A stretch of DNA of 64,000 nucleotides, from the NCBI GenBank assembly GCA_964503465.1, contig CAZCYZ010000002.1:6995-70994 (forward strand). Reading direction: 5' to 3'. Both the position numbers and the translations under genes were made by a program. Shown piece by piece: positions 24,480 to 37,063 of the stretch. The notes below the pieces were generated by a model that did not search any database, was not told where the DNA came from, and saw nothing but the letters and a program-made list of their open reading frames with translations. Source of the DNA: an uncultured Gammaproteobacteria bacterium (GTDB lineage: Bacteria > Patescibacteriota > Microgenomatia > UBA12405). Within the stretch, counting starts at the first letter, position 1. Each line of letters starts with the position of its first letter.

Positions 24480-24489
24480 AATGGTGACT

Positions 24490-24720
24490 TTAATCTTCGT
24501 TTAGTCTAAAGACTCGTGTTAGAGGACAATCTGGAGTTCCAATTTTTTCAGCGCACCAAAAGTCGGCCGCAGGAACACCGCCATACTTTCTTAGGGAACA
24601 TCGAGCGCAGGTGGTTTGGACAGCTCGATCTGCGGGGCTAGTGATATTTTCTTTTTGTAGTGGAACAATTCTTGTTTGCCATGAGCCAAGTCTGGCGCCT
24701 TTCCTGGGTTGTTCGGCCAT
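24490..24720 (-). CDS. small hypothetical protein (Cys-containing)
   Basis: 76-aa ORF; first of a run of small minus-strand ORFs. Confidence 0.3.
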   Translation of the reverse strand: MAEQPRKGARLGSWQTRIVPLQKENITSPADRAVQTTCARCSLRKYGGVPAADFWCAEKIGTPDCPLTRVFRLNED

Positions 24721-24794
24721 GTTGGTATTATAAACTATAGGATGATGGAGACTGAAAGTTTAGCGTAATAGAACTTCGTTTTTTTATTCAATAA

Positions 24795-25031
24795 TTAACC
24801 TTTGGCATCCTTGTGCATACCGAGGAAACTGGCATTGAGCATATCGGTGTCTGTCTGTCTGTTCTCTGGTGGGACAATATCAGCGGCAGTTAGTTCATCA
24901 AGCCTGTGGTTTTCGGCTGGCCTTTTGGTTATACCCTCGTGTGGTTTACCAGGGTGGGCATTGATAACACTACCAACTCCGGCTGTCTCTCGAGCGTTGG
25001 CTGATTTGGTGATAGTAATGATTGTGGCCAT
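24795..25031 (-). CDS. small hypothetical protein
   Basis: 78-aa ORF (MATIITITKSANARETAGVG...). Confidence 0.3.
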   Translation of the reverse strand: MATIITITKSANARETAGVGSVINAHPGKPHEGITKRPAENHRLDELTAADIVPPENRQTDTDMLNASFLGMHKDAKG

Positions 25032-25049
25032 ATTTATTGACGAGGTTGA

Positions 25050-25077
25050 AAATTAAAAGAAGGGGAGACTTCCCCGA
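25050..25077 (-). terminator. intrinsic terminator (ggggagacttcccc stem plus T-run on minus strand)
   Basis: Hairpin 25063-25076 followed (minus strand) by T-rich tract 25051-25061; downstream of ORF 25176..25361. Confidence 0.45.
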
Positions 25078-25175
25078 GCGTAGCTAAATTGGATCTAAAT
25101 CTGGCGATTCGAGTAGCTGGTTTTTCTAAGCCTTTAAAATATTTTGGTTTTTCTGACATATTTGTTGATTAAAAA

Positions 25176-25361
25176 TTATGATTGCATCGCTGAAAGGATG
25201 GCAACGAAGTCTCTAAATGTTGCAGAGTCGGGGTTAACCCGAGCAAGGACTGAGTCTCCGTAGCGGAGTGGTTCAACCCGTCGGCTTAGAATCTCTAAGT
25301 TATGTCGGTGGGATTGTTGCTCTGAACCGAGTCTTCCATGACTATGAATTATTTCTGACAT
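25176..25361 (-). CDS. small hypothetical protein
   Basis: 61-aa ORF with its own terminator. Confidence 0.3.
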   Translation of the reverse strand: MSEIIHSHGRLGSEQQSHRHNLEILSRRVEPLRYGDSVLARVNPDSATFRDFVAILSAMQS

Positions 25362-34831: not shown

Positions 34832-35099
34832 CCATGCAGGTAGTTCCAGGCTTACCTGTTAACACAATTTAGACCCGCTAGTTGTAATGGGTCAGAAAAT
34901 CTTGAGATCAGAAACTGCAGAGATGCGTTTCACGACCAAGGACTCGACTAAACGAGAATAAAAATTAGTAGCGCCGAGACACGAGGGAACCGTGTCTCTG
35001 GATCGGAAGATTCTTTGTCTGCGACCGCACGTTGCAGTCACATTTATTACTTCCGGTCCCCTTCAAGGGACCGGCCAAGGAATAAGTGACAAGCGACGT

Positions 35100-35170
35100 G
35101 TGGGATTGGATATCCCGACGTGAAGTCGGGGCTGATGAGTCCCGCAGTTGCAGGACGAAATCCATTTAGT
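35100..35170 (+). ncRNA. candidate type III hammerhead ribozyme
   Basis: Core CUGAUGA (35132-35138) and GAAA (35157-35160). Stem I UCCCGAC-GUGAA-GUCGGGG. Stem II GUCC..GGAC with AGUU loop. Stem III UGGAU/AUCCA. U16.1-A17 cleavage site at 35111-35112. Confidence 0.55.
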
Positions 35171-35195
35171 AAATTAATTTTTAAAAAATAAAAAT

Positions 35196-36296
35196 ATGTT
35201 TGGTGAACGAAAAAGAAATAAAGGAAAGTCGTTAGTTGTTGCTGGAGTAGCTCGAGATATAGCTTCAACCAGACCACGGGCGGAAGTGCTTATGTCGCCG
35301 AAAGAAGTGGAGAGGCGGAGACTTGCACAGGCTTGGAGGTGGTGGGACCAGGAGGGCAGGGAGAGGTCGGAGGCTGATTTGGCGGCGGCGGACCGGGCTG
35401 ATACTGAGAGAGAGGAACAAATCAGTGGTCTAAGGCGATCTTTGGATCGTAGGGAGCCAGGAGAAAGAGTTCGGAAGGTTGTCGAGTATAGGTTGAACCC
35501 AATGACTCCAGCTAGGGCTGCAAAAGAGGCGGCGGCGGTGTTGGTGGAAGAAGAGAATGACCCCGTACAAAAAATGCAATTAATAGCGAGTTTAGCAGTT
35601 GAAGAAAAAGCAGAAAGGGATAGAAGGGCTAAAGAAAAGAATGATCGCAGATTGAAAAATGAAGCTGAGTTAAGAGAATGGTTAGACGGTGGTGGTAGTC
35701 GGAAAGCATTTAAAGAAGCAGCACAGAGAGTAGCAGATATGGTTGGTGCTGGGATGACAGAAGAGCAAATGGAGCAAGCTGTTAAATTAGGCAAACATAA
35801 GGCACGTGTATTTAGGTTTGGTAAAGACGGGACTTGCGAGCAGGTTGACCAGGAGGTTGGCACAGTTGAAACTTACTTGTTGCAGGCAATTTTGGACGAA
35901 AGGAATGCCAAAAGGAGAGATGGTCACAGGAGAGCAGCCTTTGAAAGAGCTAGAGAACAGACGGGTGAAGGTGTTGCGAGTTTTTCTAGGGCTTTGGGGG
36001 GGCTGGCAGGGGAGCGGGTCGTAGGTTCACTTACTCGATTGGCACTTGCCGCAGGCGAGGAGGCAGGGAGGAGATATGACGGAAGCGTCAGACAATTAGC
36101 GGACGGTAATCCTAGAAGAGAGCAACAGGTGCAACAAAGAAGAGCGGTGGTGCAGGCGGGAGTTGACAACTCACCAGCGATGAGGATATTGCGTCGAATG
36201 GAACAAGCCTTGTCAGGTGTTCGCGACGAAGTCCATGGTTCGAGAGTTAGATTGCAGGGTCGTGGTGAAAATGAGGATGAAGATACTAGAAAATAA
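35196..36296 (+). CDS. hypothetical charged/coiled-coil protein
   Basis: Arg/Glu/Ala-rich 366-aa ORF immediately downstream of the ribozyme. Confidence 0.4.
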   Translation: MFGERKRNKGKSLVVAGVARDIASTRPRAEVLMSPKEVERRRLAQAWRWWDQEGRERSEADLAAADRADTEREEQISGLRRSLDRREPGERVRKVVEYRLNPMTPARAAKEAAAVLVEEENDPVQKMQLIASLAVEEKAERDRRAKEKNDRRLKNEAELREWLDGGGSRKAFKEAAQRVADMVGAGMTEEQMEQAVKLGKHKARVFRFGKDGTCEQVDQEVGTVETYLLQAILDERNAKRRDGHRRAAFERAREQTGEGVASFSRALGGLAGERVVGSLTRLALAAGEEAGRRYDGSVRQLADGNPRREQQVQQRRAVVQAGVDNSPAMRILRRMEQALSGVRDEVHGSRVRLQGRGENEDEDTRK

Positions 36297-36319
36297 TTAT
36301 CAGTATCAACGCAATTAAG

Positions 36320-37024
36320 ATGATGAAGGAAAAGGGATTGGCGGTTTGCGGTGTTGGCGATGCTGAGTTGAGCATTTTTTTGCCGATTTTGAGGGAACGA
36401 TTGGGGTCGAGTGATGGGGGAGGGGTGAGGTCACTAGCAGTGACACGGGCCTTATTGAGTAGACTGACGAGTGGTGTCTGGTGGGAGACGGAGGGGGTTA
36501 GGTTTACGGGCTTGGTGTCCAAAGAAGGTAGCCAAAGAATGATATTGGCTATTGAGCAGGATAATTGTCGACCTGGTGGTCGAATTTACGGTGGTGGTTT
36601 TTTCCCTGGTGGAAGATCCGTGGGTTTTGTTGGTTGTGATCCAATTGACTATCTCGCTAGCTTAAGAAAACTTCCTGGGTTTAGTTGGCCAAGAATGTTT
36701 GACGCTTTTGAGAGTGACGTTTGGGAAGCGGAAGAGATTGGTAGCGAAGCGAGGAGGACGGTGATTGATTTGTGGGCAGAGGTTGTTGGCCAATTTTGGT
36801 TGGTTGAAAGATTAAACCAGGAAGGTTTACCAGTAATCTTTGTAGCTGGAGGTAGTGCCGGAAAATATTTTGATGATCTAGTATTGGGCGGCAAGATGAT
36901 GGATTTGAGGTGGAATAGAGTGGGAGGGGAGATGAGTCGGAGATGGAAAATCTTGAGAGGAGAACTGGGAAAATTGGGTAAAACCAGGGGTGAATGGCAC
37001 AGTTGGATGAGGAAGACTGACTAG
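36320..37024 (+). CDS. hypothetical protein
   Basis: 234-aa ORF; no family recognised. Confidence 0.35.
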   Translation: MMKEKGLAVCGVGDAELSIFLPILRERLGSSDGGGVRSLAVTRALLSRLTSGVWWETEGVRFTGLVSKEGSQRMILAIEQDNCRPGGRIYGGGFFPGGRSVGFVGCDPIDYLASLRKLPGFSWPRMFDAFESDVWEAEEIGSEARRTVIDLWAEVVGQFWLVERLNQEGLPVIFVAGGSAGKYFDDLVLGGKMMDLRWNRVGGEMSRRWKILRGELGKLGKTRGEWHSWMRKTD

Positions 37025-37063
37025 CTTGTGTTATACTCCTCTGTTTAAAAATTAATTTTAATT

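Follow-up and report, generated by a model that had tools for sequence, protein, structure and literature searches.

A variable slot between a coupling-protein-type ATPase gene and rpsB in Candidatus Shapirobacteria, with a putative envelope-remodelling cassette and leader RNA

The subject of this study is the chromosomal region between topA and rpsB in a 64-kb stretch of DNA from an uncultured bacterium (GTDB lineage Patescibacteriota, Microgenomatia, UBA12405; GenBank assembly GCA_964503465.1, contig CAZCYZ010000002.1, positions 6,995 to 70,994). We call this whole stretch the window and count positions from its first letter. The gene of an ATPase of the coupling-protein type and rpsB bound a slot whose content varies among relatives, and which here holds five small genes, a predicted promoter and leader RNA, and a cassette of membrane-protein and peptidoglycan-hydrolase genes. 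A preliminary description of the same DNA had seen in the region an island of raised guanine-plus-cytosine (GC) content with genes like those of type IV secretion systems (T4SSs), parallel to Gram-positive integrative and conjugative elements (ICEs) such as ICEBs1 and Tn916. All informative genes of the window indicate a genome of the Candidate Phyla Radiation, in the Microgenomates group and close to Candidatus Shapirobacteria. We compared the region with 83 related loci; most of the 80 related loci from species-representative genomes are named Shapirobacteria. Loci of relatives carry labels such as L003, L086, L088, and L260. A Logan contig of run SRR8925802 provides an independent assembly of the arrangement from PBP2 through RseP, with agreeing gene calls, and an assembly chimera was rejected on the strength of this identical arrangement.

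The slot and its cassette

The region contains the following features, in which aa stands for amino acids, ORF for open reading frame, TM for transmembrane, and GC3 and skew3 for GC content and strand skew at third codon positions.

22503-24479: topA (Pfam)
24480-26296: variable spacer from topA to the ATPase stop codon, with no supported gene
26297-28468, minus strand: predicted soluble VirD4/TraD-type ATPase, 723 aa (Pfam, profile comparison)
28469-28939: intergenic region separating the ATPase gene from the small-ORF operon, which diverge from it
28940-30336, plus strand: five-gene operon whose small soluble products have a high content of Arg, Ala, Gly, and Pro (genes as called in the independent assembly), with small ORFs at 28940-29170, 29172-29411, 29558-29812, 29843-30121, and 30130-30336
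30364-30392, plus strand: predicted sigma-70-type promoter, TTGACA-17 nt-TG-TATAAA (alignment)
30398-30488, plus strand: putative leader RNA of about 91 nt (conservation, covariation, and folding)
30759-32129, plus strand: cassette gene 1, polytopic membrane protein, 456 aa, 9-10 predicted TM segments
32136-32459, plus strand: cassette gene 2, acidic lipoprotein, 107 aa, lipobox LLTGC (signal peptide by sequence)
32469-33380, plus strand: cassette gene 3, membrane protein, 303 aa, 5 TM segments and a C-terminal soluble part of about 110 aa (hydropathy)
33392-34831, plus strand: cassette gene 4, predicted membrane-anchored M23 plus lysozyme/SLT-like hydrolase, 479 aa
34832-35195: intergenic region conserved only among loci of the same cassette type (nhmmer)
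35196-36296, plus strand: 366-aa protein rich in Arg, Glu, and Ala (GC3 0.41, skew3 0.55)
36320-37024, plus strand: 234-aa protein (GC3 0.46, skew3 0.50)
37064-38011: rpsB (Pfam)

The distance between the ATPase gene and rpsB differs widely among the 39 relatives in which it could be measured. It is below 700 bp in 12, 0.7-3 kb in 14, 3-10 kb in five, and above 10 kb in eight, compared with 8.6 kb in the window; in 26 of the 39, the stretch is absent or much smaller. Other genomes hold in this slot small ORFs, AbiEii and BrnT/CopG toxin-antitoxin genes, DUF4143 ATPases, a type I restriction-modification methylase, and serine recombinases. L009 (3922-5379, 1601-3925) carries a large serine recombinase with Pfam-confirmed Resolvase, Recombinase, and Zn-ribbon domains, together with a fusion of type I methylase and specificity subunits, and relatives of the serine recombinase, assigned by BLAST family, lie in the slots of L012 and L020. 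The recombinase and methylase genes in the slots of these three loci indicate that the slot also receives true mobile or defence DNA.

The cassette in the window begins with the 456-aa protein, which had been described as polytopic and VirB6/TrbL-like. Its polytopic nature stands, with nine predicted TM segments, but no VirB6, TrbL, PrgH, or TcpH signal was detected by sequence, profile, or fold. A word-indexed homologue search returned only the protein itself, and an exhaustive search recovered 10 remote family members among 1.84 billion representatives. The lipoprotein and the further membrane protein of the preliminary description were both recovered. Orthologues of the former, 97-135 aa long, are present in three other cassette loci. 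The latter has counterparts by position of 288-308 aa in L086-L089, with similarity that is clear in L086 (45% identity), confined to the first ~85 residues in L087, and undetected by BLASTP in L088 and L089. PHROGs, NCBIfam, and PADLOC returned nothing for the cassette membrane proteins, and the 303-aa protein had no family match in Pfam either.

For the fourth gene, the earlier label of a cell-wall hydrolase with SLT and M23 domains proved essentially right. The protein has one TM segment and a C-terminal Peptidase_M23 domain scoring 34.1 bits (Pfam cut-off 28.7). Its central domain (approximately residues 160-300) carries the motifs Y-(D/E)-S, STDWGxCQ(I/V)N, and YNGSG, a lysozyme/SLT signature that is kept in five orthologues; the second motif reads STDWGMCQVN in the window copy, in which Asp also takes the place of the usual Glu. 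Compared with the PDB, the family profile matched M23 enzymes (E 1e-7) and the active-site strand of C-type lysozyme, and one orthologue matches Pfam SLT at 3e-4. A TM anchor, a lysozyme-like domain, and a second peptidase domain together make up the VirB1-type design of transfer hydrolases such as PrgK, TraG of pIP501, and CwlT, and lytic activity is predicted from sequence.

Similar cassettes occur elsewhere. Each of six looked-up relatives of the 456-aa protein heads a multi-gene cassette, and four of the six share the window's order of polytopic protein, ~100-aa protein, ~300-aa membrane protein, and M23 hydrolase (L089 without the small one). L260 has a variant with no recorded M23 gene, and in L261, M23 and SLT are separate genes. 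The cassette of L086 matches the window gene by gene at 33, 37, 45, 48, 28, and 27% identity, followed by rpsB (59%) and tsf (66%). The 366-aa and 234-aa proteins of the window, whose orthologues close this series in the same order, have no relatives in the other 83 loci and no family matches. In L088, the ATPase gene lies divergently upstream of the orthologous cassette, and L260 places an orthologous cassette in the same slot, with topA and the ATPase gene on one side of a 532-aa homologue and rpsB-tsf on the other. The spacer at 34832-35195 was recovered by nhmmer in L086 (E 2.5e-22) and L087 (E 9e-8), and it also forms the downstream edge of the compositional anomaly described below.

A second cassette type consists of a 2-3-TM protein of 331-429 aa, proteins of 229-309 aa and 501-594 aa, and a multi-TM M23 hydrolase of 429-965 aa with or without SLT. 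The M23 hydrolase family is common to all cassette types. The closest relative of the window, L003 (ATPase 88%, topA 80% identity), carries a type different from that of the window, and cassette type therefore does not follow relatedness.

The four genes at 30759-34831 are set apart by base composition, in agreement with the GC-rich block reported earlier at 30.7-34.8 kb. Their GC content is 0.539 against a background of 0.441 +/- 0.012, and in 4-kb windows, they reach z scores of +8.2 for GC, -2.6 for GC skew, and +3.2 for tetranucleotide distance. The third-position anomaly is limited to these genes (GC3 0.54-0.67, plus-strand skew3 0.07-0.30), with host genes showing GC3 of 0.40-0.52 and skew3 of mostly 0.43-0.74. 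Strand skew is host-like in the five small ORFs and in the 366-aa and 234-aa genes, all of which show raised GC at codon positions 1 and 2 that accompanies an Arg/Ala/Gly/Pro-rich make-up. The GC-rich patch reported near 29 kb was likewise found, with GC of 0.57-0.60 at 29.0-29.5 kb, and both GC and skew are back at host values beyond ~35.1 kb. A change of character right at the topA stop, as claimed earlier, was not found; 24.0-29.0 kb is ordinary in composition (GC z 0.3-1.0, tetranucleotide z ~0). Odd composition coincides with absence from the 83 related loci, including the closest relative, for 30759-34831 only and not for 24480-28468.

The GC3 and skew anomaly is common to the orthologous cassettes of L086 and L088, which are 26-48% identical to that of the window. 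Because the same odd-composition cassette lies at the same place in at least these two other Shapirobacteria, high GC alone does not date an insertion. Either the cassettes have been repeatedly re-imported from an outside pool, or their composition is held by something. As a separate observation on composition, plus-strand G-over-C skew is very strong over the whole window (mean 0.33) with no skew switch, and for most host genes, the third-position skew on the plus strand holds whatever the gene orientation. This pattern indicates an unusually strong replication-strand mutational bias.

The five small ORFs that precede the cassette had been noted before and are called identically in the independent Logan assembly. 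Their products have no TM segments, and Pfam, PHROGs, NCBIfam, and PADLOC, covering three to five of the five proteins per library, gave nothing of weight (Pfam matches at chance level, E 0.05-0.24). When the slot proteins of the window were compared with the 83 loci by tblastn, only the first product (76 aa) had a relative, which is 43% identical and lies in L003. Other genomes of the group have comparable arrays at this position, made up of small ORFs unrelated to these. Between this operon and the ATPase gene, the sequence at 28519-28934 is conserved with L003 and includes a palindrome (inverted repeat I1) at 28748-28800, with 25-nt arms that are 88% complementary and a 3-nt loop. It may be an operator or an RNA hairpin; the Rfam matches at ~28.7 kb were chance miRNA-like hairpins only.

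A shared promoter and leader RNA

The sequence at 30337-30435 is conserved, by blastn, upstream of cassettes of different types, and it includes the predicted sigma-70-type promoter. In 14 aligned copies, the TTG of the -35 element and the TGTATA of the -10 region are invariant, the remainder of the -35 element is nearly so, and the spacing is fixed. The predicted leader that follows consists of a helix P1 (ATGTTG/CAACAT), an A-rich symmetric internal loop, a hairpin P1a, a short linker, and a long two-tier terminator hairpin that ends in U8. A generic promoter and terminator scan of the region was uninformative, with terminator counts at the level of shuffled sequence.

We collected 28 leader copies, 23 of them distinct: 14 from the window and genome or assembly loci, 13 from metagenome contigs, and one from L260. 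In all 28 cases, the first cassette gene follows at a distance of 40-340 nt on the same strand, irrespective of cassette type, and no copy was found in loci with a slot below 3 kb. A scan with a degenerate promoter pattern gave mostly chance hits, among which an nhmmer check recognized 13 real copies in 120 metagenome and 50 viral loci; all 13 are from metagenomes, and none of the 50 IMG/VR loci matching the pattern contains the leader. A covariance model found one copy per cassette locus across 1.34 Mb and a single copy in the 64-kb window.

When folded separately, the copies show the same architecture. In P1 and P1a, 86% of alignment cells pair, compared with 27-53% in slid controls; both partners have changed in eight of the 12 pairs, and none of 500 shuffles reaches the observed values. 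The window leader has a minimum free energy of -27.4 kcal/mol (z -3.2). From MAFFT alignments, RNAalifold retrieved P1 and P1a only; the terminator hairpin, being of variable length and out of register, was documented copy by copy. An invariant ATG stands at the predicted transcript start and opens a short ORF of 19 codons in the window, which ends inside the terminator; in the copies, it comprises 13-39 codons and ends in or after the terminator. Changes in P1a among closely related copies are compensatory and not synonymous, which makes RNA structure a better-supported constraint than a possible translation of the ORF.

No Rfam 15 family matches the leader, either in a search of 14 kb at E<=1 or in one of 451 nt at E<=10; the latter gave two chance-level snoRNA-like matches (E 1.1 and 1.3, far under gathering scores) that only graze its last bases. 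In the 270-nt gap between the leader terminator and the first cassette gene lies a further plus-strand hairpin (inverted repeat I3, 30535-30586, 21-nt arms), in a region conserved with the orthologous cassette locus L086, and the whole 372-nt 5' region folds at z -5.5.

The ydaO/c-di-AMP riboswitch is a terminator-type cis-regulatory leader upstream of cell-wall hydrolase genes, and the arrangement here resembles it in its predicted series of promoter, structured RNA, intrinsic terminator, and operon with peptidoglycan hydrolases. Unlike ydaO, the leader has no Rfam 15 match, its conserved part is only a bulged hairpin of ~40 nt, and it is overlapped by a short leaderless ORF.

The ATPase gene and the flanks of the slot

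The 723-aa ATPase had been taken for a VirB4-like protein comparable to ConE. The ORF and its placement in the VirB4/VirD4 clade are upheld, but by Pfam and by profile comparison with hhalign, the protein is of the coupling-protein (VirD4/TraD/TrwB) type and not VirB4. It has a Walker A motif (GKSGTGKT) at residue 346 and a Walker B motif (YVDEFQ) at residue 593. The Pfam family TrwB_AAD_bind matches at 34.2 bits (cut-off 20.5), and DUF87 matches as well; the best NCBIfam families are TraD and VirD4-like ones, all under cut-off. VirB4 models match at the P-loop only, with 15.4 bits for TIGR00929 (cut-off 643) and 20.8 bits for VirB4_plasma (cut-off 590). The nearest solved sequences are TrwB and DotL, and phrog_5156 matches at E 1e-66. 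According to a precomputed annotation, the N-terminal third is DUF8128, and residues 1-290 model as a soluble alpha/beta domain (predicted local distance difference test score 80-93). No TM anchor was found, as the protein has no hydrophobic segment (maximum 19-residue hydropathy 1.28). Hence, of the features of a type IV coupling protein (T4CP), a TrwB-type P-loop domain with homology is present, and an N-terminal TM anchor and, within the 64-kb window and the syntenic loci of relatives, a relaxase or channel context are not.

Plasmids of Bacillus, Streptomyces, Sulfolobus, and haloarchaea carry homologues of the ATPase. In two cases, both from Bacillales, the homologue is directly upstream of a "replication-relaxation" gene and ahead of "conjugal transfer protein" genes; L262 and L263 (Bacillales plasmids NZ_CP012476.1 and NZ_OX419581.1) are the loci in which it stands beside a relaxase gene. 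The transfer genes of the Bacillus subtilis plasmid include TcpD- and TcpE-family members, followed by a gene for an 854-aa "ATP-binding protein". In hhalign, the Shapirobacteria-family profile aligned with the relaxase-adjacent 913-aa ATPase of this plasmid over 653 columns (99.6% probability, E 6e-25), and the ATPase reached a probability of 0.6% against the 854-aa protein. The latter carries no name and, judged by position, is a candidate VirB4-type (TcpF-position) ATPase. These two plasmids hold further echoes of the locus, the Shouchella plasmid in a type IA topoisomerase gene and the B. subtilis plasmid in an M23 "DD-metalloendopeptidase" gene. The parallel to the chromosomal topA/ATPase/hydrolase neighbourhood may be a coincidence or a trace of ancient plasmid ancestry.

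Within the Shapirobacteria, the ATPase gene is conserved in both sequence and position. Its best database matches are Shapirobacteria and Microgenomates proteins from metagenome-assembled genomes, with 72-88% identity among the 119 other best matches listed. Identity is 47-88% across all 83 loci and 70-88% in the 60 close relatives, defined as kept relatives with an ATPase homologue at least 69% identical. Wherever the contig extends far enough, the gene adjoins topA (55 of the 60) and rpsB (31 of the 60). Its median identity is ~74% (86% for the C-terminal 183 aa), compared with ~65% for topA and ~63% for rpsB (tsf in L086, 66%). This high identity and the fixed topA and rpsB flanks in relatives place the ATPase gene outside any island, as a core gene and a conserved orphan. 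A relaxase or T4SS channel was found neither in the 64-kb window nor in the syntenic loci of relatives, and the ATPase persists, highly conserved, in the 26 of 39 relatives without a cassette beside it. Because it is more constrained than topoisomerase I or ribosomal protein S2, its conservation argues for an essential function that is not tied to conjugation. In L086 (1944-4124), tblastn finds a full-length ATPase at 75% identity, and the gene caller reports only a 183-aa C-terminal fragment and overlapping plus-strand ORFs; an in-frame stop, a pseudogene, or an assembly error may account for the discrepancy.

Orphan homologues of this kind have been described in a recent report on Patescibacteria (Quinonero-Coronel et al., 2025; PMC12102498), which counts 5,713 T4CP homologues, only 148 of them near virB4, and considers them possibly exapted. 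The report also places a virB4 cluster of Microgenomatia near dnaA. The ATPase of the window resembles these VirD4-like homologues in being chromosomal, with no virB4 nearby and no relaxase, and the NCBI label of its relatives, [quoted passage not shown], fits them as well. It is unlike canonical T4CPs in that it lacks a TM anchor and has DUF8128. The searched text of PMC12102498 does not mention a topA or rpsB context (0 occurrences) and does not describe the variable slot, the hydrolase cassettes, or the leader RNA, and our literature searches returned no description of the locus, the slot, the cassette families, the leader RNA, or DUF8128.

The spacer between topA and the ATPase gene varies from 8 bp to 2.8 kb among 55 relatives (median 585 bp). 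A cassette of small minus-strand ORFs had been proposed at 24.5-26.3 kb, and this does not hold. The gene caller of the independent assembly recognized only a 78-aa ORF on the minus strand (24795-25031) and a 73-aa ORF on the plus strand (26075-26296), and the small ORFs there that were scanned with Pfam gave no credible match, the sole listing at E<=0.5 being a chance-level KNOX1 (E 0.065). By tblastn, none of the six small ORFs has a relative in the 83 loci, and tblastx of the spacer found no gene remnants. Patches of the spacer are shared only with the closest relative L003 (25347-25796), apart from one short patch in L086.

Signs of an integrated element were also sought. The search for direct repeats that the preliminary description had proposed gave no convincing att-like pair flanking the region; the best pair is 15 nt long, contains a mismatch, and has one of its members within the ATPase gene. 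As stated in the preliminary description, there is no flanking tRNA and no integrase or relaxase domain in the ORFs scanned. No tRNA gene lies within 24-37 kb (the nearest are at 5.7 and 10.6 kb), no relaxase family appeared in the Pfam, NCBIfam, or PHROGs scans, and none of the 13 slot and spacer ORFs of 24.5-37.1 kb compared with Pfam has a recombinase domain, several ORFs of 50-72 aa being outside that scan. An ICE of the ICEBs1/Tn916 type was rejected, as integrase, relaxase, VirB4, and att features all failed to appear, and the region is not a conjugative island. For the ATPase, the presence of the same gene at the same topA-rpsB locus in close relatives is the very observation that the preliminary description had named as speaking against its island. 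What survives of the T4SS island is an accessory ATPase-rpsB stretch with a compositionally foreign four-gene core, with the ATPase, a core gene, outside it. For island-calling, this is a caution: high GC together with T4SS-like names did not mean an ICE.

Other genes of the window surround this region. Upstream is a cell-envelope neighbourhood with mreB, PBP2, and a Wzy-like ligase. The ribosomal protein S2 encoded by rpsB has a Lys-rich N-terminal extension of ~100 aa ahead of the S2 domain (Pfam residues 102-314). Farther downstream, a 1643-aa ORF at 42363-50579 has no Pfam match and a composition of its own (GC2, the GC content at second codon positions, 0.60; GC3 0.33; tetranucleotide z up to 3.8). 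Next come a 433-aa ORF, also with no Pfam match, and genes of small proteins that carry domains of the cohesin, cohesin plus LPXTG anchor, and dockerin kinds, and the neighbourhood looks like a surface-display cluster.

A plasticity slot and its alternatives

With a probability of roughly 60%, we read the locus as a chromosomal plasticity slot of Candidatus Shapirobacteria that contains a laterally exchanged operon for envelope and peptidoglycan remodelling, gated by a leader RNA. The slot is anchored by the core gene of the soluble orphan ATPase, which is transcribed away from it, and by rpsB, and its content here comprises the operon of five small proteins, the predicted promoter and leader with its terminator, and the envelope operon with two fast-evolving genes. 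The cassette products would assemble into a complex in the membrane and cleave peptidoglycan at a confined site, which could be the wall of the cell itself or the place where it touches a host cell. In view of the lifestyle put forward for the Candidate Phyla Radiation, such a host contact, and not the septum of the cell, may be the target. At the leader terminator, some signal would decide whether transcription proceeds into the cassette; it could be a ligand or a protein, or the short leaderless ORF that runs into the terminator could act by being translated. Cassettes would be exchanged between lineages by recombination in conserved flanks, namely the leader on the upstream side and, on the downstream side, rpsB or the spacer at 34.8-35.2 kb, and such exchange would keep them diverse. 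A functional link between cassette and ATPase is possible and is not required by this reading; it is weakened because the ATPase persists without a cassette in two thirds of relatives.

Several points weigh against the exchange of a leader-gated operon. The promoter, transcription start, termination, and regulated read-through are predictions, a function is predicted for one of the six proteins of the extended cassette and for none of the five small ORFs, and the exchange itself is deduced from a patchy distribution among few loci. The compositional anomaly is kept across cassettes only 26-48% identical in three genomes, for which recent import is no simple explanation and a gene-intrinsic constraint could be responsible instead. 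In addition, the coupling-protein neighbour and the transfer-type design of the hydrolase keep a T4SS-related role open.

O-antigen and capsule loci and defence hot spots are variable cassettes between conserved chromosomal flanks that carry sugar-biosynthesis or defence genes. The slot resembles such O-antigen/capsule loci or defence-island hot spots in its conserved anchors, its exchangeable content of atypical composition, its several cassette types, a distribution that is patchy with respect to phylogeny, and the toxin-antitoxin, restriction-modification, and recombinase genes that are co-resident in the slots of some genomes. It differs from all of these in that its content is an operon of peptidoglycan-hydrolase and membrane-protein genes and in that all cassette types share one promoter-leader RNA.

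A softened form of the earlier idea would make the locus a domesticated or degenerate Gram-positive conjugation or T4SS module. The hydrolase, the polytopic membrane proteins, and the coupling-protein ATPase would then make up a minimal translocon that lacks VirB4 and moves DNA or proteins, with the small proteins as possible substrates or regulators. Over its whole length, the ATPase is homologous to the one encoded beside the relaxase gene on Bacillus Tcp-type plasmids, which we take to be pLS20-like, and an M23 endopeptidase and a type IA topoisomerase are carried by those plasmids too. PrgK has M23, SLT, and CHAP domains, and CwlT combines a muramidase with a peptidase. With these Gram-positive systems (Bacillus Tcp-type plasmids, PrgK of pCF10, CwlT of ICEBs1), the locus shares ATPase homology that includes the N-domain and a membrane-anchored hydrolase with two lytic domains. 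In the window, in L088, in L260, and in loci of the other cassette type, ATPase and cassette are adjacent and divergent, and the TM-anchored lysozyme/SLT-like plus M23 hydrolase is of the VirB1 type found in monoderm systems (VirB1 homologues with M23 are reported in PMC12102498). However, the same paper gives VirB4 as a component of every known T4SS, with only 148 of the 5,713 coupling-protein homologues of Patescibacteria near virB4, and the slot has no match to VirB4, relaxase, VirB3, VirB8, or pilin. The 456-aa protein lacks a VirB6 signal. The ATPase does not have the N-terminal TM anchor seen in canonical coupling proteins, and its high conservation extends to the 26 of 39 relatives with no adjoining cassette. 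Unlike the Gram-positive systems, the slot contains no relaxase, no VirB4 (TcpF-type), and no TcpC/D/E/H-type or VirB6 component, and the locus is chromosomal, fixed in position, and free of integration or excision machinery, with a vertically inherited ATPase. Of the parallel drawn earlier to Gram-positive conjugative elements, the hydrolase design and the ATPase clade thus remain, and integrase, relaxase, VirB4, and att sites do not. On balance, we regard a domesticated translocon as unlikely.

A phage origin and a housekeeping role are both far less probable. If the region were a prophage or phage-like remnant, the hydrolase would be a tail or injection lysin, the membrane proteins would be related to holins, superinfection exclusion, or injection, and the small ORFs would be early or regulatory genes. 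M23 domains matching the hydrolase do occur in phage tail-hub and internal proteins (9m7n Gp16, 8kea hub, 9k2v), weak PHROG matches to peptidases and tape-measure proteins were obtained, the ATPase matches phrog_5156 and has homologues in SPO1-like Bacillus phages, small-ORFan arrays are typical of phages, and serine recombinases occupy the slot of some relatives. Yet the slot of the window has no capsid, portal, terminase, tail, or integrase gene and no att repeats, 8.6 kb is too small for a tailed phage, and the ATPase, the 456-aa protein, and the hydrolase have no relative in 2.9 million IMG/VR contigs. The absence of the leader from the 50 pattern-matching viral loci and the recurrence of the same architecture at the same chromosomal site under the same leader make a phage remnant very improbable. 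We are scarcely more inclined to see in the cassette a fast-evolving housekeeping complex of cell-wall growth or division, like FtsEX-EnvC or SpoIID/M/P, with a composition set by amino-acid and codon constraints. The cell-envelope neighbourhood upstream, the host-like 366-aa and 234-aa genes, and a compositional signature common to orthologous cassettes at 26-48% identity would suit it, but the cassette is missing at the locus in two thirds of relatives, the closest relative has a different type, the cassette is a near-orphan among the 1.84 billion representatives, and the anomaly affects third codon positions and strand skew, not only positions driven by amino-acid content.

Beyond the plasticity slot with its leader-gated operon, a more far-reaching proposal can be made, which we put forward as speculation and hold to be unlikely as a whole. 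The leader would be a new, Microgenomates-specific class of cis-regulatory RNA (a riboswitch, a protein-responsive attenuator, or a leaderless-peptide attenuator) that controls a family of laterally swapped, fast-diversifying envelope-breaching cassettes at host contact, with the ATPase as the motor feeding DNA or small proteins through a VirB4-less apparatus.

A life in attachment to other cells is assumed for bacteria of the Candidate Phyla Radiation, and little is known about the means by which they breach or remodel envelopes. The locus offers a concrete handle on envelope breaching, in the form of hydrolase cassettes that differ between close relatives under one shared promoter and leader RNA. 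It also gives a fixed chromosomal context to one member of a group of orphan coupling-protein ATPases that number thousands in Patescibacteria and lack an explanation. Its chief interest lies in this ultra-conserved orphan coupling protein beside a hypervariable neighbour and in the leader RNA, a short covarying motif that is directly testable for a ligand or protein partner.

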